A stretch of DNA of 13,904 nucleotides from a virus (Duplodnaviria; Heunggongvirae; Uroviricota; Caudoviricetes), in the IMG/VR virus record IMGVR_UViG_2778261674_000001, positions 1 to 13,904 of that record; one strand, written 5' to 3'. A program made the position numbers and the translations under genes. Below the pieces are notes generated by a model that saw nothing but the letters and a program-made list of their open reading frames with translations, had not been told where the DNA came from and made no database searches. Positions 2,179-10,487 of this stretch are shown here, one piece after another (within the stretch, counting starts at the first letter, position 1; each line of letters opens with the position of its first letter).

Positions 2179-2505
2179 TCAAATAAGTGGTTTGCTGCCT
2201 AATTTCATTTTCTGGCGACCAACACAAGTCACACCTATTTCACTGCGTGGCTTGCTGTACCATGTGCGCTGATTCTTGCGCTCAATACGTTGCAGGTTGC
2301 TTTCAATCTGTTCGTGGTATTCAGCCAGCACCGTAAGGTCTATCGGATTCAGTGCGCTTTCTACTCGTGATTTCGGTTTGCGATTCAGCGAGAGAATAGG
2401 GCGGTTAACTGGCTTTGCGCTTACCCCAACCAACAGGGGATTTGCTGCTTTCCATTGAGCCTGTTTCTCTGCGCGACGTTCGCGGCGGCGTGTTTGTGCA
2501 TCCAT
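2179..2505 (-). CDS. N: N-type transcription antiterminator; lambda N-like with a diverged C-terminal third
   Basis: MDAQTRRRERRAEKQAQWKAANPLLVGVSAKPVNRPILSLNRKPKSRVESALNPIDLTVLAEYH... The arginine-rich N-terminus that binds boxB is lambda N. The C-terminus (...SKPRSEIGVTCVGRQKMKLGSKPLI) differs from the lambda sequence I recall. Shine-Dalgarno GGAGAA lies upstream of the ATG at 2505. Confidence 0.9.
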   Translation of the reverse strand: MDAQTRRRERRAEKQAQWKAANPLLVGVSAKPVNRPILSLNRKPKSRVESALNPIDLTVLAEYHEQIESNLQRIERKNQRTWYSKPRSEIGVTCVGRQKMKLGSKPLI

Positions 2506-3038: not shown

Positions 3039-3224
3039 TTACAGAGCAAAGAGATCATGCATTAGGTTGCTGTTCATCTGGTGGTTGAATTGATACGGCT
3101 CCAATTCCTTCTTGATCTCGTTCAGGTGTTGTTCCGCTTTTTTTGCCAGATCGTGACCTTCTTGGATCTGGCTTTCCAACATCTTGTTGAGAATTTCCAT
3201 CTCCGGTTGCAGATTCTTCGGCAT
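3039..3224 (-). CDS. Small ORF (61 aa from the ATG at 3224; up to 91 aa if started at 3314), predicted helical; nested out of frame in the 3' end of the protease-like gene
   Basis: Track ORF 3039..3314. The internal ATG at 3224-3222 is preceded by a strong Shine-Dalgarno AAGAGGAAA (complement of 3231-3239). The product MPKNLQPEMEILNKMLESQIQEGHDLAKKAEQHLNEIKKELEPYQ... looks like real helical protein. No homologue recognised. Confidence 0.4.
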   Translation of the reverse strand: MPKNLQPEMEILNKMLESQIQEGHDLAKKAEQHLNEIKKELEPYQFNHQMNSNLMHDLFAL

Positions 3225-4056
3225 TAGCTTTTTCCTCTTTTTGTAGATACGTTGTACAATCAATAACCCTCGGCTTTCCAAATGTTGGAATGTCACCATT
3301 ATGAATTTTGTCACAGAAAAGATTATAGAGTATTTCTGTTATACCTTTAGGATGCTCAACACACTTGAAAAGTTCCTTGGCTTCTTTTCTGTCGATAACA
3401 AATCCATGTGAAGGATATGAGGCTATTAGTTTGCCTAACGCCCCTTCTTTTAGGCTGCTTGGTTTGTCTGCTAATCGTTGGCCATAAGTGATAGCTATAC
3501 TCATTGCGCGCTGATGTTCACCAAGCTTTATTGGATCTATCTGTGCGGCCATAGGTGCTATCAACGCTTCTGTAAGTCTGGTCGCGATATCAGCAGACAT
3601 TTTGGTACTTATCTGATTTTCGTATCTTATCTTAACAAGGTGTGAGTTAAACGCTGAAATAGAGCGTTCCTTTAGAGCATCAAGAGCTGTCATGATAGCT
3701 AAACCAGAACTCATCTCACCTATTTCATCGTTTTTTTTCAGTTGGATATCTAATGGCCCAAGCTCCCCCATGTCACCAATAACAAGTTTATTGGCTGCTA
3801 TAGCTATTAGTGTACCAGCACTTTTGCATGGTCCAACAACTAAAAGTGTTACCGTTTCATAATGGTGCTGTAGAGCTCTACCTATACGATAACCTGCATT
3901 TGGATCACCGCCATAAGTAGCAACACAGAAGATAACATTCTCTTTTAATCCATGTTGTGACTTACGTTTCTTGATTTCATTGGTGAGATCAAGATAACCA
4001 TCACGATGAATATCGCCTGTATACACATAAACATCATGATTTTCAATAGAATTCAT
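3055..4056 (-). CDS. ClpP-fold serine-protease-like protein (SDH / peptidase S49-like), 333 aa; occupies the slot where lambda has rexAB
   Basis: ATG at 4056-4054 with Shine-Dalgarno AGGGAG upstream. Motifs TYGGDPNAGYRIGRAL ... VVGPCKSAGTLIAIAANKLVIGDMGELGPLDIQL resemble the SDH/S49/ClpP nucleophile region (G-x-x-x-S-x-G, Ser codon at 3822-3820). A possible catalytic His sits in YPSHGF. The last ~75 residues are low-complexity and overlap the nested ORF. Family assignment is from recalled motifs, not a search. Confidence 0.65.
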   Translation of the reverse strand: MNSIENHDVYVYTGDIHRDGYLDLTNEIKKRKSQHGLKENVIFCVATYGGDPNAGYRIGRALQHHYETVTLLVVGPCKSAGTLIAIAANKLVIGDMGELGPLDIQLKKNDEIGEMSSGLAIMTALDALKERSISAFNSHLVKIRYENQISTKMSADIATRLTEALIAPMAAQIDPIKLGEHQRAMSIAITYGQRLADKPSSLKEGALGKLIASYPSHGFVIDRKEAKELFKCVEHPKGITEILYNLFCDKIHNGDIPTFGKPRVIDCTTYLQKEEKANAEESATGDGNSQQDVGKPDPRRSRSGKKSGTTPERDQEGIGAVSIQPPDEQQPNA

Positions 4057-4222
4057 TCGTTAAACTCCCTGCTGTGGTTACGATGAATGTATTCATGTTG
4101 AAGCTAAGCCATAGCGGCTTGTCATCATCACCAATCTGGCGGAATTGACTGTTCATAAATCACAATTGGAATTACCCAAACGTCTCTTCAGGCCACTGGC
4201 TACCAGCTATGTGACGATGAAG

Positions 4223-4927
4223 TCACGAATTTTTCAGCCACTCCCTTGCCTCGATGTCATCCAGATGGCGAGATTGCTTCAGAATACCAGCCACATACTC
4301 CACCTTTGCTACTTGATGATAAGGCAACGTTATTGGCCTGTGGTCCTGGTTAATGCTTGTAAATTGGTATTCTCCATCTCTGTCATAGCCAAGAACCTTA
4401 ATCATGTTGTGTCCTTCAACGGTTCTGACAAACACCTCATCACCCGGGAATACTTTGGTGTTAGGCTCAATGAGTACATATTCTCCTGATTTTATTCTGG
4501 GCCACATGCTGTCTCCTTTCACACGAAGACCAAAGGCATCTGGATCATCGCTATAAATTTTGAGCCACCCATCGCGCTCTTCGGTCATCTCGATGGCACC
4601 ATCAACACCAAGAATTGCCTCACCAACCACGCGCACTAACCCTTTTCTTACCTGACCTACAAAAGTTAAAGAATCTGAGCATGATGCAATTGGTGTTACA
4701 TCATGTACCAAATCAAGCCACCCATTAGGTAACCCAAGTGCAGCTTCAAATTTTCTTGCTAGTTTATCCCCTATGTTTCGAGTGCTTTTTTCACCGGAGA
4801 CTTGCGTGAGTTGAGAAGGGCTAACCCCAAGCTTATCGGCAAAGCTTGCATTAGTGTTACCCGCGATTTTTTTATGCTCATCTAGCAAAAACGCCAGATT
4901 CGATTTGCGAATATCTTTGTTTTCCAT
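4223..4927 (-). CDS. CI-type prophage repressor: N-terminal HTH plus C-terminal LexA-like S24 autopeptidase domain; non-lambda immunity
   Basis: 234 aa. HTH-like segment NASFADKLGVSPSQLTQVSGEK near the N-terminus, and an S24 signature GDSMWPRI ... with the conserved Lys (MIKVLG) in the C-terminal half. Divergently arranged with the cro-like gene across the operator region. Shine-Dalgarno AGGGAG before the ATG. Confidence 0.85.
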   Translation of the reverse strand: MENKDIRKSNLAFLLDEHKKIAGNTNASFADKLGVSPSQLTQVSGEKSTRNIGDKLARKFEAALGLPNGWLDLVHDVTPIASCSDSLTFVGQVRKGLVRVVGEAILGVDGAIEMTEERDGWLKIYSDDPDAFGLRVKGDSMWPRIKSGEYVLIEPNTKVFPGDEVFVRTVEGHNMIKVLGYDRDGEYQFTSINQDHRPITLPYHQVAKVEYVAGILKQSRHLDDIEAREWLKNS

Positions 4928-5040
4928 CTCACAATTCTCCCTCTATTTAGCAAATGGATAAATACGCAATATGATAAATTTACATTGCAGTTGATTTATC
5001 AAAATGGTAAAGTTATTCTGTATGATAAACGGAGGCACTA
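4928..5040. promoter_or_regulatory. OR region: divergent pRM-like and pR-like promoters with at least three 17-bp operators of consensus TTTATC-N5-GATAAA
   Basis: Sites at 4946-4962 (TTTAGCaaatgGATAAA), 4995-5011 (TTTATCaaaatGGTAAA) and 5014-5030 (TTATTCtgtatGATAAA), plus an extra GATAAAT motif at 4973-4979. The same consensus occurs in OL (2776-2792). Candidate pR -10 TAAAGT at 5008-5013 and candidate extended -10 for pRM (TGcTAAAT on the minus strand, 4945-4952). Promoter hexamers are tentative. Confidence 0.6.
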
Positions 5041-5274
5041 ATGAGTAATGAACTACTACGCTGGCGAAAAGAGGCTTCTAGTGAGGAATGGAAGCGACTC
5101 GCCGCATTAGCGAAAACTTCAGTTGGCTATCTTGACCAGATTGCATATGGATTTCGAAGAGCTTCCCCTGATAAAGCGAATGCAATCGAAGAAGCTACTC
5201 GTAATTTCACGGCTTATAAACCCGTGAAAAAGGAAAACCTGGTGTTCGTATCGCGTAGAGCATCAGCAGCATAA
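5041..5274 (+). CDS. Cro-like first gene of the rightward operon (YdaS/Cro-family HTH protein, 77 aa)
   Basis: First ORF downstream of OR with Shine-Dalgarno GGAGG at 5031-5035. The segment RRASPDKANAIEEATRNFTAYKPVKKENL resembles the YdaS/Cro family signature (...P.AIE.AT...). Not lambda Cro. Confidence 0.7.
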   Translation: MSNELLRWRKEASSEEWKRLAALAKTSVGYLDQIAYGFRRASPDKANAIEEATRNFTAYKPVKKENLVFVSRRASAA

Positions 5275-5281
5275 ATAACCC

Positions 5282-5313
5282 CGCTCTTACACATTCCAGC
5301 CCTGAAAAAGGGC
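5282..5313 (+). promoter_or_regulatory. nutR: boxA CGCTCTTAC plus boxB GCCCTGAAAAAGGGC
   Basis: CGCTCTTACACATTCCAGCCCTGAAAAAGGGCA at 5282-5314 is the lambda nutR sequence as recalled. The 15-nt boxB forms a 5-bp stem with a GAAAA loop. Confidence 0.9.
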
Positions 5314-5705: not shown

Positions 5706-5867
5706 ATGACAAAACGTCGTAAGAAATACCAGGAAAAAGAAGAGATTCGACACCCTGATTCACCTGAGGGATTAGTGGTAGCCGCAGCAAATAACAGGGC
5801 GTTCGCAGAGCGCCTTGTTGGTGTTTACAGACTAGCCAAAGCAGGAGTGAAACATGGGCGTCGTTAA
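5706..5867 (+). CDS. Small basic ORF (53 aa, [53 protein letters not shown]) overlapping the start of the O-like gene
   Basis: Hand-translated and absent from the ORF track. ATG at 5706 preceded by Shine-Dalgarno AGGAG (5697-5701). It ends 14 nt inside the O-like ORF, suggesting translational coupling. No homologue recognised. Confidence 0.4.
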   Translation: MTKRRKKYQEKEEIRHPDSPEGLVVAAANNRAFAERLVGVYRLAKAGVKHGRR

Positions 5868-6675
5868 GTTAGCTGATTACAGGCCTCAACTTGAGGTCGT
5901 GGAGCATCGCGTGGCAGATACCGAAGATGGTTTCATGCGCGTTGCTAACGAGATTACCGACAGTCTGCTGATGGCTGATTTAACCGTCCGGCAGTTGAAG
6001 GTGATGCTCGCTATCATGCGCAAGACATACGGATTCAATAAGCCGATGGATCGACTCACAAACACGCAGATAGCAGCCATGACAGGTATTCATCACACTC
6101 ATGTTTGCGCTGCCAAGCGCCAGCTTATCGAGCGTAAATTCCTCATTGCTGATGGCGTGAAAATCGGAGTGAACAAGGTGGTTTCTCAGTGGATTAGCCA
6201 GGACAGCTTAACATTAGCTAAAACAGCTAATAAAACATTAGCCGAGTCGGCTAATGGGTATAAGCCAAGTCAGCTAAACACAAAAGACAATATACAAAAG
6301 ACAATAAATACAAATACCCCCTTACCCCCTAACGGGGGAGGCGATGGGCAGGTTAAACCTGAACGTCGCAAGGCAGAACGAATCGACTACGAATCCTTCC
6401 TGAACGCCTACAACACCGAAGTCGGTGACAGACTTCCACATGCTGTTGCGGTCAACGAGAAACGCAAACGCCGCCTGAAGAAAATCATCCCGCAACTGAA
6501 AACGCCAAACGTGGACGGTTTCAGAGCGTATGTCAGGGCGTTTGTGCATCAGGCCAAGCCGTTTTACTTCGGAGACAACGACACGGGCTGGACGGCAGAT
6601 TTTGATTACCTGCTGAGGGAAGATTCGTTAACGGGAGTACGGGAAGGGAAGTTTGCAGACAGGGGGATTGCATGA
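5854..6675 (+). CDS. O: Replication initiator, lambda O-like N-terminal domain with a different C-terminal domain (273 aa)
   Basis: [39 protein letters not shown] aligns with lambda O (ADLTKRQFKVLLAILRKTYGWNKPMDRITDSQLSEIT). Shine-Dalgarno AGGAG before the ATG. The gene contains iterons plus an AT-rich stretch, as expected for a lambdoid origin. Confidence 0.85.
6193..6316. repeat. Putative replication origin inside the O-like gene: four ~19-bp iterons (consensus ATTAGC-N7-GCTAAT) followed by an AT-rich segment
   Basis: Iterons at 6193-6211 (degenerate), 6213-6231 (ATTAGCTaaaacAGCTAAT), 6237-6255 (ATTAGCCGAGTCGGCTAAT, a perfect palindrome) and 6260-6278 (degenerate). AT-rich ACAAAAGACAATATACAAAAGACAATAAATACAAATAC at 6279-6316. 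Architecture parallels ori-lambda. Confidence 0.6.
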
Positions 6676-8048
6676 GACAGGATATCGAAGCGAGCGTTAT
6701 CGGTGGCCTGCTGATTGGTGGATTAACACCAACCGCCAGCGACGTTCTGGCAACGCTGGAGCCGGAAGCGTTTTCAATTCCGCTCTACCGGAAAGCCTTC
6801 GAGGTTATCCGCAAGCAGGCGAGAAACAGAAACCTAATCGATGCGCTGATGGTTGCCGAGGCGTGCGGAGAGGAGCATTTCACGTCAATCCTGATGACCA
6901 GCAAAAACTGCCCGAGTGCCGCAAACCTGAAGGGATATGCCGGAATGGTCGCGGATAACTATCACCGCCGTCTGGTGCTGGAAATCATGGATGAAATGCG
7001 TGAACCAATTCAGAGCGGAACCATCGACGCATCGAGTCAGGCGATGGATGAGCTTGTAAAGCGTCTTTCAGCCATCAGAAAGCCCCGTGACGAGGTTAAA
7101 CCTGTACGGTTAGGGGAAATCATTACTGACTACACTGACACGCTTGACAGGCGTCTGAGGAACGGAGAAGAGTCAGATACCCTGAAGACCGGAATCGAAG
7201 AACTTGACGCCATCACCGGAGGGATGAACGCGGAAGACCTGGTGATAATCGCTGCTCGTCCTGGTATGGGGAAAACCGAACTGGCGCTGAAGATTGCCGA
7301 AGGCGTTGCAAGCCGCGTTATTCCTGGTTCTGACGTCCGGCGCGGGGTATTGATTTTCTCAATGGAAATGAGCGCATTGCAGATTGCAGAGCGAAGCATT
7401 GCCAACGCCGGGAGGATGTCGGTTAGTGTGCTGCGAAATCCTGCAGCGATGGATGACGAAGGCTGGGCGCGCGTTGCTAACGGCATGAGTCAGCTTGCAG
7501 ATTTGGATGTATGGGTAGTCGATGCCTCGCGGTTATCGGTCGAAGAAATACGCTCAATCGCAGAACGGCACAAACAGGAAAATCCAAACCTCTCACTCAT
7601 CATGGTGGATTATCTTGGCCTGATTGAGAAGCCGAAAGCAGACCGCAACGACCTCGCAATTGCTCACATCTCCGGAAGCCTGAAGGCGATGGCGAAAGAC
7701 CTGAAAACGCCCGTTATCTCCCTGAGTCAGCTTTCTCGCGATGTTGAGAAGCGACCAAACAAACGCCCGACAAACGCAGATTTGCGTGATTCAGGAAGCA
7801 TTGAACAGGACGCAGACTCAATCATCATGCTCTATCGGGAAGCGGTATATGACGAGAACAGTAGCGCCGCGCCATTTGCTGAAATCATCGTAACGAAAAA
7901 CCGTTTTGGCTCGCTTGGTACGGTTTACCAGCGGTTCTGCAACGGACACTTTGTTGCATGTGACCAGGATGAAGCCAGACAGATTTGCACAACATCAAAT
8001 GCACCTGCTGCACGTGGCAGACGATATGCACAAGGGGCTGACGTATGA
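6672..8048 (+). CDS. DnaB-family replicative helicase (P22 gene 12-like), 458 aa
   Basis: Walker [16 protein letters not shown], DnaB-like N-terminal domain ([12 protein letters not shown]...) and C-terminal RecA-like motifs ([20 protein letters not shown]). The start overlaps the O-like stop (ATGA). This replaces a lambda P-type loader. Confidence 0.85.
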
Positions 8049-9603: not shown

Positions 9604-9772
9604 CCCATCCCAATCCCTTCAATACCAGAAAGAAAGCGTCGAGCGGGCTTTAACGTGCGCTAACTGCGGTCAGAAGCTGCATGTGCTGGAAGTTCACATG
9701 TGTGAGCACTGCTGCGCAGAACTGATGAGCGATCCGAATAGCTCAATGCACGAGGAAGAAGACGATGAATGA
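9596..9772 (+). CDS. ninF: NinF (58 aa, Cys-rich)
   Basis: Hand-translated: [58 protein letters not shown], matching lambda NinF as recalled. Absent from the track because it is under 60 aa. Confidence 0.75.
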
Positions 9773-10487
9773 GTTAATAAATGGCAATGCCATCAAAATG
9801 ACAAGCATTGAAATCGCTGAGTTGGTTGGTAAGCGTCATGACAATGTGAAACGTACCATCGAAACGCTGGCTAAAAATGGTGTTATCCGGCTTCCTCAAA
9901 TTGAGGTTTCCGAAAGAATCAATAACTTAGGGTTCAATGTTCAGTACGAGCATTACGTTTTCGAAGGCGAACAAGGTAAGCGAGACAGTATTGTCGTTGT
10001 TGCCCAGTTGTCGCCGGAATTCACCGCTCGCCTTGTTGACCGCTGGCGAGAGCTTGAAGAAGCTGCGGTTAATATCCCCAAAACGCTACCAGAAGCGTTG
10101 CGCCTTGCTGCTGATCTTGCTGAGCAGAAAATGCAACTGGAAAACCAGCTCGCAATTGCCGCACCTAAAGTTGAGTTTGCCGATCGCGTTGGCGAGGCCA
10201 GCGGAATTTTGATTGGAAACTTTGCAAAGGTTGTCGGTATTGGTCCAAACAAACTGTTTGCGTGGATGCGCGATCACAAAATCCTTATTGCTTCAGGTTC
10301 CCGGCGCAATGTGCCAATGCAGGAATATATGGATCGCGGCTATTTCACAGTGAAAGAAACAGCGGTCAACACAAATCACGGAATACAGATATCGTTCACC
10401 ACAAAAATCACCGGGCGTGGTCAACAGTGGCTGACCAGAAAGCTGCTCGATAACGGAATGCTGAAAGTAACAGGTGAGGCTGCTTAA
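9765..10487 (+). CDS. Rha-N / KilA-C (ANT) domain protein, antirepressor-like or Roi-like (240 aa)
   Basis: N-terminus MTSIEIAELVGKRHDNVKRTIETL is a Rha-family signature. The C-terminal half (ILIGNFAKVVGIGPNKLFAWMRDHKILIASGSRRNVPMQEYMDRGYFTVKE...) resembles the KilA-C/ANT domain. Domain calls are from recalled motifs. Confidence 0.7.
   Translation: MNELINGNAIKMTSIEIAELVGKRHDNVKRTIETLAKNGVIRLPQIEVSERINNLGFNVQYEHYVFEGEQGKRDSIVVVAQLSPEFTARLVDRWRELEEAAVNIPKTLPEALRLAADLAEQKMQLENQLAIAAPKVEFADRVGEASGILIGNFAKVVGIGPNKLFAWMRDHKILIASGSRRNVPMQEYMDRGYFTVKETAVNTNHGIQISFTTKITGRGQQWLTRKLLDNGMLKVTGEAA

Follow-up and report, generated by a model that had tools for sequence, protein, structure and literature searches.

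The cI–cro spacer of a mosaic lambdoid prophage very probably carries the right operator of the Shiga-toxin phage H-19B immunity region

The 113-bp spacer at positions 4928-5040 of the analysed DNA (the window, 13,904 nucleotides of the IMG/VR virus record IMGVR_UViG_2778261674_000001) fills the gap between the start codon of a cI repressor gene on the minus strand (4925-4927) and the ATG of a cro gene (5041). The question raised by this locus is which immunity its sequence specifies. The first-pass annotation, made from the letters alone, had described repeated 17-bp palindromes in this spacer as operators of a non-lambda immunity and had left the immunity group unnamed. Sequence comparison indicates that the spacer is very probably the right operator (OR) of a lambdoid prophage carrying the immunity region of the Shiga-toxin phage H-19B. 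This region is already known, having been described since 1998-2001, and the finding of the first pass is therefore correct but ordinary.

The cI gene (4223-4927, minus strand), identified as an open reading frame, encodes a protein of 234 aa in which an HTH domain at the N-terminus (residues about 1-70) precedes an S24 autopeptidase domain at the C-terminus. The latter matches Pfam Peptidase_S24 (PF00717) with E=3.8e-16, and its best Foldseek matches are lambda repressor C-terminal fragments and LexA C-terminal domains. The protein contains GDSM at 138-141 with Ser140, as well as Lys177 (full-length numbering), and both the catalytic Ser and Lys are invariant in an alignment of 36 homologues. 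At the position of the Ala-Gly cleavage site of other repressors, cI has Leu106-Gly107, and the cleavage-site region of the alignment shows the invariant motif GEA-x-LG-x-x-G. The 933W repressor is reportedly cleaved at a Leu-Gly bond. The AF2 model shows helices at 2-18, 25-32, 36-42 and 53-63 (pLDDT 78-89, numbering without Met1) and then a beta domain. The Pfam match and this model bear out the HTH plus S24 architecture proposed in the first pass. The N-terminal domain matches Pfam HTH_3 at E=0.0061, below the family cut-off, and PHROG repressor families match residues 1-78. The cI gene has a Shine-Dalgarno sequence and a leader, unlike in lambda, where the transcript from PRM begins without one.

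The cro gene (5041-5274, plus strand) is preceded by the Shine-Dalgarno sequence GGAGG (5031-5035) and encodes 77 aa with a match to PHROG 35 'transcriptional repressor' (E=3.4e-7). No Pfam family matches Cro at E<=10, although a very weak match could have been lost, as most matches above about 0.1 are removed by the HMMER filters. Its earlier description as YdaS-like (Pfam YdaS_toxin) was not borne out. PDB sequence searches with the cI N-terminal domain and with Cro gave non-significant matches only. The statement that both proteins are unrelated to those of lambda holds for the DNA-binding domain of cI and for Cro. It does not hold for the S24 domain, which is a distant homologue of its lambda counterpart (BLASTP E=6e-5; Foldseek).

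The GC content of the spacer is 31%, compared with 47.5% in the window. Dyads were searched with the pattern TTTATCNNNNNGATAAA, against which all mismatches were counted. Nearest to cI lies the dyad TTTAGCAAATGGATAAA (4946-4962, 1 mismatch), which is probably an OR3-like site. It shares one base with the next dyad, ATACGCAATATGATAAA (4962-4978), which has a strong right half and a weak left half and was missed in the first pass. The dyad TTTATCAAAATGGTAAA (4995-5011, 1 mismatch) is located within the spacer and -10 of pR and is the putative OR1-like site. The fourth dyad, TTATTCTGTATGATAAA (5013-5029, 2 mismatches), has a poor left half and spans about -8 to +10 of the predicted pR. The centre-to-centre spacings of the four dyads are 16, 33 and 18 bp. 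An unbiased repeat finder also detects the dyads matched at OR and pL, in families D1, D2 and D6, with the 4962-4978 dyad in family D2. The TTTATC-N5-GATAAA-like dyads between cI and cro appear, from their sequence, to be real repressor operators, and the consensus of the 17-bp dyads predicted to be bound by cI is TTTA(T/G)C-N5-G(A/C)TAAA. The three dyads between cI and cro and the two at pL that had been reported earlier were all located by the pattern search. Four of the reported positions (4946-4962, 4995-5011, 2776-2792 and 2801-2817) were reproduced, whereas the dyad given as 5014-5030 is actually at 5013-5029, a shift of one base. The earlier count of three OR and two OL sites is incomplete: those sites exist, but OR has four candidates and OL probably three.

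The predicted pR (4985-5013, plus strand) consists of the -35 hexamer TTGCAG (4985-4990), a 17-bp spacer and the -10 hexamer TAAAGT (5008-5013), and its start is expected near 5020. Its geometry and -10 hexamer are the same as those of pL, which was found by the promoter scanner, and a 31-nt inverted repeat, I1, joins pL/OL1 to pR/OR. TTGC and TAAA(C/G)T are kept at the pR hexamer positions in 63 distinct related OR sequences. With 8 of 12 matches at a threshold of 9, pR was not reported by the scanner, which gave instead a rightward promoter-like match at 4947-4975. A search for PRM by consensus and conservation yielded no convincing hexamer pair, and the conserved final T is lacking from candidates like TGcTAAATA, which lies in the 4946 dyad.

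At the left operator (OL), the promoter scan placed pL at 2774-2802 on the minus strand, with -35 TTGCCA (2802-2797), a 17-bp spacer and -10 TAAAGT (2779-2774). OL1, TTTATCGAAATGATAAA (2776-2792, 0 mismatches), is a perfect 6+6 dyad within the pL spacer and -10. OL2, AATAGCAAAATGATAAA (2801-2817, 3 mismatches), overlaps the pL -35 by two bases. A candidate OL3, AATATCATATTGATTTT (2833-2849), was missed in the first pass; it has 5 mismatches to the consensus and 5/6 internal dyad symmetry, and together with the 4962-4978 region it forms inverted repeat I2. It may tentatively be regarded as a third, weak OL site. The centre-to-centre spacings in OL are 25 and 32 bp. The start of pL is probably at 2767, a position taken from homology to the lambda pL start. 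The region 2679-2768, transcribed downstream of pL, shares 98.9% identity with lambda 35494-35583, nutL included, and the lambda-type identity stops at 2768. The N antiterminator gene transcribed from pL (2179-2505, minus strand; Pfam N36, E=1.5e-26) is likewise of the lambda type.

The assignment to the H-19B immunity group is carried by the comparison with H-19B itself, a Stx1 phage (GenBank AF034975). The cI proteins are identical in 233 of 234 residues and the Cro proteins in 75 of 77. The OR dyads at 4946, 4962 and 4995 are base-for-base the same, OL2 is identical, and OL1 differs at one central base only. Five base differences occur across the OR spacer, and none affects a half-site of the first three dyads. 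One distinguishes the -35 hexamers (TTGCAG here, TTGCGG in H-19B), and two fall in the fourth dyad, at a left-half position and at a central one. The immunity group that had been left unnamed is thus that of H-19B, and the earlier reading of the dyads at both OR and pL as operators that define a non-lambda immunity group is supported.

The first 91 aa of cI are 100% identical in H-19B, BP-4795, ST2-8624, AU5Stx1 and many Stx1a phages. The H-19B immunity region is found in these phages and also in mEp506 and E. coli strain H19, and it is present in 216 of 5426 complete E. coli genomes. When OL is compared with H-19B-type phages, the differences in OL1 are confined to the central N5, at 2783 and 2785, and OL2 is invariant in four such phages. 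The candidate OL3 is conserved except for one central and one outer position, with variable flanks. The surroundings of the immunity region are not those of H-19B. The flanking N and nutL are of the lambda type here and not of the H-19B type; a gene for a 333-aa SDH/Clp-fold protease lies between OL and cI, where other carriers of H-19B immunity have different genes; and replication relies on an O-like protein and a DnaB-type helicase instead of O/P.

The operators of H-19B are reported to have been described in Neely & Friedman 1998 and Shi & Friedman 2001, and the literature treats them as known sequences. A review citing Shi & Friedman 2001 gives four operators in the H-19B OR. By this count, we infer that the four dyads found here would correspond to the four published operators. 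The public record of ST2-8624 annotates oR1-3 only, roughly at the 4946, 4962 and 4995 dyads. Its oR3 is the equivalent of 4944-4960 (-2 bp from the 4946-4962 dyad), oR2 of 4967-4983 (+5 bp from the 4962-4978 dyad) and oR1 of 4993-5009 (-2 bp from the 4995-5011 dyad). A full-text literature search gave no match for the operator strings or for the H-19B repressor/operator.

Related immunity regions of other genera were represented by Klebsiella phage vB_Kpn_Chronis, a Klebsiella pneumoniae prophage, an Erwinia endophytica prophage and the prophage locus L016. Their repressors belong to the same N-terminal domain family, with whole-protein identities of 55-73%, and Cro is homologous in the two Klebsiella elements and in Erwinia. 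All share with the window the first three OR dyads, the TTGC and TAAA(C/G)T elements of pR, OL1-3 and equal spacing; the fourth OR dyad is not present in them. The 4946-4962 dyad is found at the same place in the Klebsiella, Erwinia and L016 relatives. The counterpart of the 4962-4978 dyad reads ATGCTC-N5-GATAAA in L016, whereas the other three relatives have ATATGC-N5-G(A/C)TAAA. A perfect OL1 dyad occurs at the same place in loci L015, L016 and L017, in which all 17 bases of OL2 are identical as well; the right half of OL2 in the Chronis phage is GCTAAA. At the position of the candidate OL3, a better dyad is found in L015 (TTTATCTTGATGATTAA) and in L016.

A broader sample was obtained by picking viral contigs with a composite of the first and second OR dyads, which gave 120 contigs with 80 distinct OR sequences. 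A homologue of the cI N-terminal domain is encoded on the opposite strand in 117 of the 120 contigs, and in 115 contigs its start codon is exactly 19 bp from the composite dyad. Synteny alone explains part of this association, since the loci are homologous. A dyad with at most one mismatch lies 47-51 bp after the first dyad in all 80 distinct sequences, and this site was absent from the search pattern. Many of the related ORs have TTTAGC/GCTAAA half-sites instead of TTTATC/GATAAA. Across repressors with 33-73% identity from E. coli, Klebsiella, Erwinia and many uncultured phages, TTTA(T/G)C-N5-G(A/C)TAAA dyads are kept at fixed spacing. A dyad with at most three mismatches occurs at the fourth position in only 13 of the 80 sequences, and on this sequence comparison the fourth OR dyad (5013-5029) is specific to H-19B-type alleles.

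The general layout of the locus resembles that of lambda, with divergent cI and cro genes, an autocleaving S24 repressor and partly symmetric operators of 17 bp that overlap both early promoters, pR and pL. On the left side, N and nutL are of the lambda type. The operator sequence, however, is unrelated to that of lambda and has no match in the lambda OR; the cI N-terminal domain and Cro have no sequence similarity to those of lambda; and OR has four sites with other spacing. The Stx2 phage 933W is similar in that its lambdoid switch also departs from the lambda pattern in operator number and in that the C-terminal S24/oligomerisation domain is 94% identical (cI residues 81-234). The N-terminal DNA-binding domains of the two repressors do not align. 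The operators of 933W are 15 bp long, and their conserved base pairs are G-C at position 2 and C-G at position 5; there are three in OR and two in OL, and stk and other genes lie between OL and cI. The immunity of 933W, first suspected from the pattern of three OR and two OL sites, was rejected, as only the C-terminal domain matches and the operators differ. The repressor of O104:H4 (BAA2326) was also discarded, its operators being unrelated. HK022 immunity was set aside as well: the N-terminus of HK022 cI reads differently by eye, and the 8-kb HK022 stretch contains only one match with two mismatches.

The dyads could in principle be nothing more than AT-rich promoter, UP-element or IHF/Fis sequence without dyad-specific repressor binding. 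The low GC content of the spacer and the overlap of a half-site with the -10 TAAAGT of both promoters speak for this explanation. It is nevertheless extremely improbable. At up to two mismatches the window contains 5 matches against 0.64 expected, a number reached in 1 of 200 shuffles, although these tests are partly non-independent of the sites because the pattern was derived from the first-pass reading of them. Four of the five matches fall in the two regulatory spacers. At OR, none of 5000 dinucleotide-preserving shuffles of the 113-bp spacer reached the observed three sites with up to two mismatches (mean 0.028). AT-richness is thus not the explanation. For the OL stretch, a site with at most one mismatch appeared in 9 of 5000 shuffles. 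The same dyad is present at two promoters 2.2 kb apart and also upstream of the -35, where promoter elements are not expected. Furthermore, variation is seen in the central five bases and in the flanks, with the half-sites unchanged. In seven homoimmune alleles the 4946-4962 and 4995-5011 dyads are invariant, so that none of their 24 half-site positions varies, compared with 9 variable positions among the 46 that lie outside the sites (Fisher p=0.023). In the 4962-4978 dyad GC...TGATAAA is invariant, and two of the three variable positions are in the central N5. The occurrence of the motif also follows the N-terminal domain family, and few matches were present in the short stretches of other phages that were searched: at up to two mismatches none was found in 933W (12 kb) or lambda (1.3 kb), one in HK022 (8 kb) and two in SfV (5.2 kb). 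Two further matches in the window are not regarded as operators. The one at 1875-1891 (2 mismatches) is outside any regulatory spacer and was treated as chance, and the one at 4541-4557 within the cI coding sequence (3 mismatches, with better counterparts in L016 and L017) is accounted for by conservation of the encoded peptide IYS-x-D.

The dyads being read as repressor operators, it may be asked whether all four OR sites function. On one account only those at 4946, 4962 and 4995 do, and 5013-5029 is a fortuitous half-site in the cro leader. The left half of this dyad indeed varies among homoimmune alleles (TTATTC, TTGTTC, TCGCTC, TTGCTC), neither the Klebsiella, L016 and Erwinia relatives nor 67 of the 80 distinct related ORs have the dyad, and the ST2-8624 record lists three OR operators. 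Against this, the review gives four OR operators for H-19B, the spacer holds no other candidate for a fourth, and TC-N5-GATAAA is invariant in all seven homoimmune alleles, with variation at the three preceding positions (2-4 of the left half). We consider a three-site OR unlikely. A switch that is lambda-like in detail, with pairwise cooperative dimers and OL-OR looping setting the order of occupancy, is also unlikely. It is suggested by the divergent cI and cro, the multiple operators at both early promoters and the distance of about 2.2 kb between OL and OR. For the repressor of 933W, whose C-terminal domain is 94% identical, binding to adjacent sites is reported to be non-cooperative, and the H-19B repressor is presumed to behave likewise; OR moreover has four sites. 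Operators in lambda are spaced roughly 23-24 bp centre-to-centre, a value unlike the 16/33/18 bp of OR and the 25/32 bp of OL. The proposal that the locus reproduces the OL/OR logic of lambda therefore holds only in part: the general layout agrees, the number and spacing of the sites do not, and the C-terminal domain belongs to the 933W type.

For the four-site H-19B-type OR, we propose that cI dimers would bind the dyads at 4946, 4962, 4995 and 5013, and in OL two strong sites (2776 and 2801) and a weak one (2833). Repressor bound at the 4995 and 2776 dyads would occupy the spacer and -10 of pR and pL, respectively, and so block RNA polymerase, and the rightward cro-cII-O-helicase and leftward N transcription would be shut off. 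The dyads at 4946 and 4962 adjoin the cI start and presumably set the transcription of cI itself, while the H-19B-specific dyad at 5013 would cover the pR start. Activation of RecA in the SOS response would lead to self-cleavage through the S24 domain and release the promoters, and Cro would then be expected to bind the same sites as cI. The position of pR, the role of each operator site and Cro binding are predictions of this scheme.

The use of the result is a practical one: with the mosaic prophage placed in the H-19B immunity group, the Stx1 and Stx2 phages that it would exclude or co-repress can be predicted. The assignment also shows the immunity cassette (OL, cI, OR, cro) moving between lambda-type and Stx-type backbones. 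A modestly useful by-product is the comparative evidence from the 80 distinct ORs on fourth-site specificity and on operator register, which they pin to TTTA(T/G)C-N5-G(A/C)TAAA. It is tentatively conceivable that the H-19B-type N-terminal domain represents one broad operator-specificity family in Enterobacterales, to which the fourth dyad is a recent addition of the H-19B lineage. Since the dyads and their spacing are shared, partial cross-immunity could then exist between prophages of different genera, and the fourth dyad over the pR start would, if this is true, tune the induction of Stx phages.

The immunity region is assigned by sequence identity to imm H-19B. A megablast search of the segment 4100–5400 against phage records retrieved the cI–cro regions of mEp506, AU5Stx1, BP-4795, ST2-8624 and many Stx1a phages with 98% identity. 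Over its first 91 residues, the repressor matches cI of the classical Stx1 phage H-19B with 100% identity, and 233 of the 234 residues of the whole cI and 75 of the 77 residues of Cro are shared with this phage. Of 5426 complete E. coli genomes, 216 carry the cI–OR–cro segment, strain H19 and the O26:H11 strain 11368 among them. The first-pass annotation had described a non-lambda immunity that defines an immunity group and had suggested a search of phage and prophage genomes for the repressor; this search returned the homoimmune phages and gives the group its name. The H-19B operator sequences were treated as known by Chen et al. (2005), citing Neely and Friedman (1998). The switch itself is already known, and its earlier interpretation was right in kind and incomplete.

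The immunity of 933W was rejected, as just residues 81–234 align with 933W cI (94% identity) and the 933W operators are different 15-bp sites. The O104:H4-type immunity was also rejected. The same applies to lambda immunity: the S24 domain of cI gives a distant match to lambda cI (E = 6e-5), and no similarity of Cro to lambda Cro was found. The proposal that both proteins are unrelated to lambda holds for Cro and has to be qualified for the S24 domain of the repressor.

The OR spacer (4928–5040, 113 bp) lies exactly between the leftward cI ORF (4223–4927, 234 aa) and the rightward 77-aa cro ORF (5041–5274). The window was searched with the operator pattern TTTATCNNNNNGATAAA, which was derived from the sites as read in the first-pass annotation, so that the tests are not fully independent. 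At pL, the OL1 dyad (2776–2792, centre 2784) matches the pattern perfectly, with 0 mismatches, and OL2 (2801–2817, centre 2809) with 3 mismatches. In the OR spacer, the dyads 4946–4962 (centre 4954) and 4995–5011 (centre 5003) show 1 mismatch each, and the dyad 5013–5029 (centre 5021) shows 2. These are the three OR and two pL dyads predicted previously, at the predicted coordinates except for the last, which had been placed one base off at 5014–5030. Two dyads had been overlooked. The dyad 4962–4978 (centre 4970; ATACGCAATATGATAAA) combines a strong right half with a weak left half, and its first base is the last base of the 4946 dyad. The candidate OL3 dyad (2833–2849, centre 2841; AATATCATATTGATTTT) matches the consensus weakly and has an internal symmetry of 5/6. 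In the OR region there are thus four candidate dyads, spaced 16, 33 and 18 bp apart from centre to centre; the OL region contains two strong dyads and a weak one.

The operator motif is AT-rich and the GC content of the spacer is 31%, so these sites could have been merely AT-rich sequence. This is contradicted by dinucleotide-preserving shuffles of the OR spacer, none of which (0/5000; mean 0.028) contained three sites at ≤2 mismatches. Shuffling of the OL stretch yielded a site with ≤1 mismatch in 9 of 5000 cases. In the window, five matches at ≤2 mismatches were found against 0.64 expected, four of them in the two regulatory spacers. A repeat finder blind to the consensus recovered the operator sites as the repeat families D1, D2 and D6. 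The operator dyads are real and not an artefact of composition. In heteroimmune controls, matches at ≤2 mismatches numbered 0 in 933W (12 kb), 0 in lambda (1.3 kb), 1 in HK022 (8 kb) and 2 in SfV (5.2 kb), a control that is weak because the stretches are short. In the GenBank record of ST2-8624, oR3, oR2 and oR1 are annotated at the equivalents of 4944–4960, 4967–4983 and 4993–5009. These annotations correspond to the first three OR dyads in slightly shifted registers. According to a review citing Shi and Friedman (2001), H-19B has four operators in OR, and the 5013 dyad is probably the fourth.

The promoter scan placed pL on the minus strand at 2802 to 2774 (TTGCCA-17-TAAAGT), with OL1 filling the spacer and the −10 hexamer. 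The transcribed DNA just downstream (2679–2768) shares 98.9% identity with nutL and the pL leader of lambda, and by homology with the lambda start we take pL transcription to begin near 2767. A 31-nt inverted repeat returned by the repeat finder links the pL and pR regions; together with conservation it suggests a pR laid out like pL, with the −35 hexamer TTGCAG at 4985–4990, a 17-bp spacer and the −10 hexamer TAAAGT at 5008–5013. The 4995 dyad lies in its spacer and −10 hexamer, and the 5013–5029 dyad would cover about −8 to +10. The putative pR is missing from the list of the scanner because it scores only 8/12 against the consensus. PRM was not located in the OR region. The scanner also reported a rightward sigma-70-like match at 4947–4975 on the plus strand (TTAGCA-17-TATGAT, 9/12), which sits inside the first two OR dyads. 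It may be a real promoter upstream of the putative pR, or it may be a chance match, since its −10 hexamer reads TTTGAT in three of seven homoimmune alleles.

Seven spacer alleles were compared (the window, H-19B, ST2-8624 and four E. coli prophages), and 16 of the 113 positions are variable. All 24 half-site positions of the 4946 and 4995 dyads are constant, whereas 9 of the 46 positions that belong to no site vary (Fisher p = 0.023). Of the other variable positions, three lie in the central N5 and four in the poorly matching left halves of the 4962 and 5013 dyads. In the OL region, identity between the window and H-19B-type phages reaches only about 89%, but no half-site position of OL1 or OL2 differs. 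The differences are confined to the centre of OL1 (2783 and 2785), the DNA between the sites, and the centre and one outer base of OL3. Upstream of pL (2923–2969), half-site-like strings TTTAGCAAGTTGTATTTATCAATTTTTCA and a 16-nt inverted repeat (2926–2941/2954–2969) are present; here TTTAGC is conserved in H-19B-type phages and TTTATC is not.

Full-length cI homologues with a similar N-terminal domain share 47–73% identity. Four related loci were read: Klebsiella phage vB_Kpn_Chronis, a K. pneumoniae prophage (73% cI identity), a prophage encoding the homologue P0011 (60%) and an Erwinia endophytica prophage (55%). In each of them the first dyad lies 19 bp from the start codon of cI and is directly abutted by the second; a 15–16-bp gap with a TTG-initial −35 hexamer (TTGC in three) follows, and then the third dyad, often a perfect palindrome, with the −10 hexamer TAAA(C/G)T. 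Order and spacing are those of the window. OL1 is also kept, and OL2 is almost invariant (AATAGCAAAATG(A/C)TAAA). About 32 bp further on stands a third OL dyad that matches better than that of the window, e.g. TTTATCTTGATGATTAA, and it is chiefly for this recurrence that OL3 is tentatively assigned. When viral contigs were scanned for the composite of the first and second dyads, at least 120 loci (L018–L137) were retrieved. Among the matches listed, 117 of 120 carry a homologue of the N-terminal domain (33–100% identity) on the opposite strand, and in 115 of them the distance to the upstream start codon is exactly 19 bp. A dyad with ≤1 mismatch follows 47–51 bp after the first, outside the composite search pattern, in all 80 distinct spacers among these matches; the fourth-dyad position matches at ≤3 mismatches in 13 of the 80, essentially H-19B-type alleles. 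Synteny is to be expected of homologous loci such as these; what carries information is the constancy of the half-sites and promoter hexamers against diverging central bases and inter-site DNA. Both the operator architecture and the family of N-terminal domains are widely distributed, occurring in at least 120 viral contigs plus the Klebsiella relatives L013 and L015, the P0011 prophage locus L016 and the Erwinia prophage L017. Many relatives have TTTAGC/GCTAAA half-sites where H-19B has TTTATC/GATAAA, so a switch of specificity may lie in position 5 of the half-site.

An operator-like 17-mer also occurs within the cI coding sequence (window 4541–4557, 3 mismatches; L016 3904–3920; L017 3865–3881, TTTATAGCGGAGATAAA, 1 mismatch). 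It encodes the conserved S24 peptide IYS-x-D and is therefore most likely a by-product of coding.

The repressor was predicted to combine a helix-turn-helix with an S24 autopeptidase. The Pfam search of cI returned only Peptidase_S24; HTH_3 on the isolated N-terminal part stayed below the cut-off (E = 0.0061). In an AlphaFold2 model built on 36 homologues (mean pLDDT 83.6; numbering without Met1), four helices at 2–18, 25–32, 36–42 and 53–63 (pLDDT 78–89) are followed by a disordered linker (76–91) and a beta-rich domain, whose best structural matches are the C-terminal domains of lambda repressor and LexA. The modelled helices 25–32 and 36–42 (ASFADKLG/SPSQLTQ) are likely to form the helix-turn-helix. 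Residues Ser140 and Lys177 do not vary among the homologues, and Leu106-Gly107 stands where Ala-Gly is usually found. The prediction agrees with both domains. A 2022 survey of Stx-phage CI proteins described a 'Clade III' without an HTH domain and about 60% identical to another clade. The cI of the window, about 62% identical overall to 933W cI (145/235), may belong to this clade. Its residues 1–70 (4717–4927) lack a Pfam HTH call, yet they are modelled as a confident four-helix HTH domain.

A classical repressor–operator immunity switch is the reading with the best support, and we infer the following roles for the individual sites and for Cro. At pR and pL, repressor dimers bound to the internal dyads would exclude RNA polymerase, and the two cI-proximal dyads would govern the promoter of cI itself. 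RecA-stimulated self-cleavage of the repressor would lead to prophage induction, and Cro would then act on the same sites. By analogy with the 933W repressor, which is reported not to bind adjacent sites cooperatively, as is presumed for H-19B too, the C-terminal domain of the repressor is probably non-cooperative. The order in which the dyads are occupied would then depend on their individual intrinsic affinities, as shown for 933W. The lambda OL/OR logic proposed earlier applies in outline; in detail, the switch differs from lambda in its four OR sites, their spacing and its probable lack of cooperativity.

The element is a mosaic, and none of the complete E. coli genomes covers 80% of the window. 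N and nutL are of lambda type, with lambda-type identity ending at 2768; H-19B-type DNA spans 2735–2950 (about 89% identical to the H-19B OL region) and 4171–5285. Just downstream of pL, the two homologies overlap by about 35 bp (2735–2768), probably the recombination joint of the lambda-type N module and the H-19B immunity cassette. Between OL and cI lies a minus-strand gene for a 333-aa SDH-family/Clp-fold serine protease (3055–4056; weak Pfam SDH_protease and CLP_protease matches, RefSeq naming), followed by a terminator-like hairpin (3026–3005). In other carriers of H-19B immunity, this cargo slot contains a TolA-like pseudogene, a DUF1828 protein or hypothetical proteins. To the right of cro lie cII, an O-like initiator, a DnaB-type helicase, nin genes, a KilAC/Rha antirepressor-like gene and Q. 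The antirepressor-domain protein (Rha + KilAC (ANT), 240 aa, 9765–10487) is encoded in the nin region; in 933W, the corresponding region carries a gene annotated roi ('anti-repressor', similar to Roi of H-19B and HK022). Whereas H-19B, 933W and lambda have an O/P pair, the replication module of the window (5854–8048) consists of the O-like initiator (273 aa) and the DnaB-type helicase (458 aa), a further sign of the immunity cassette moving between backbones.
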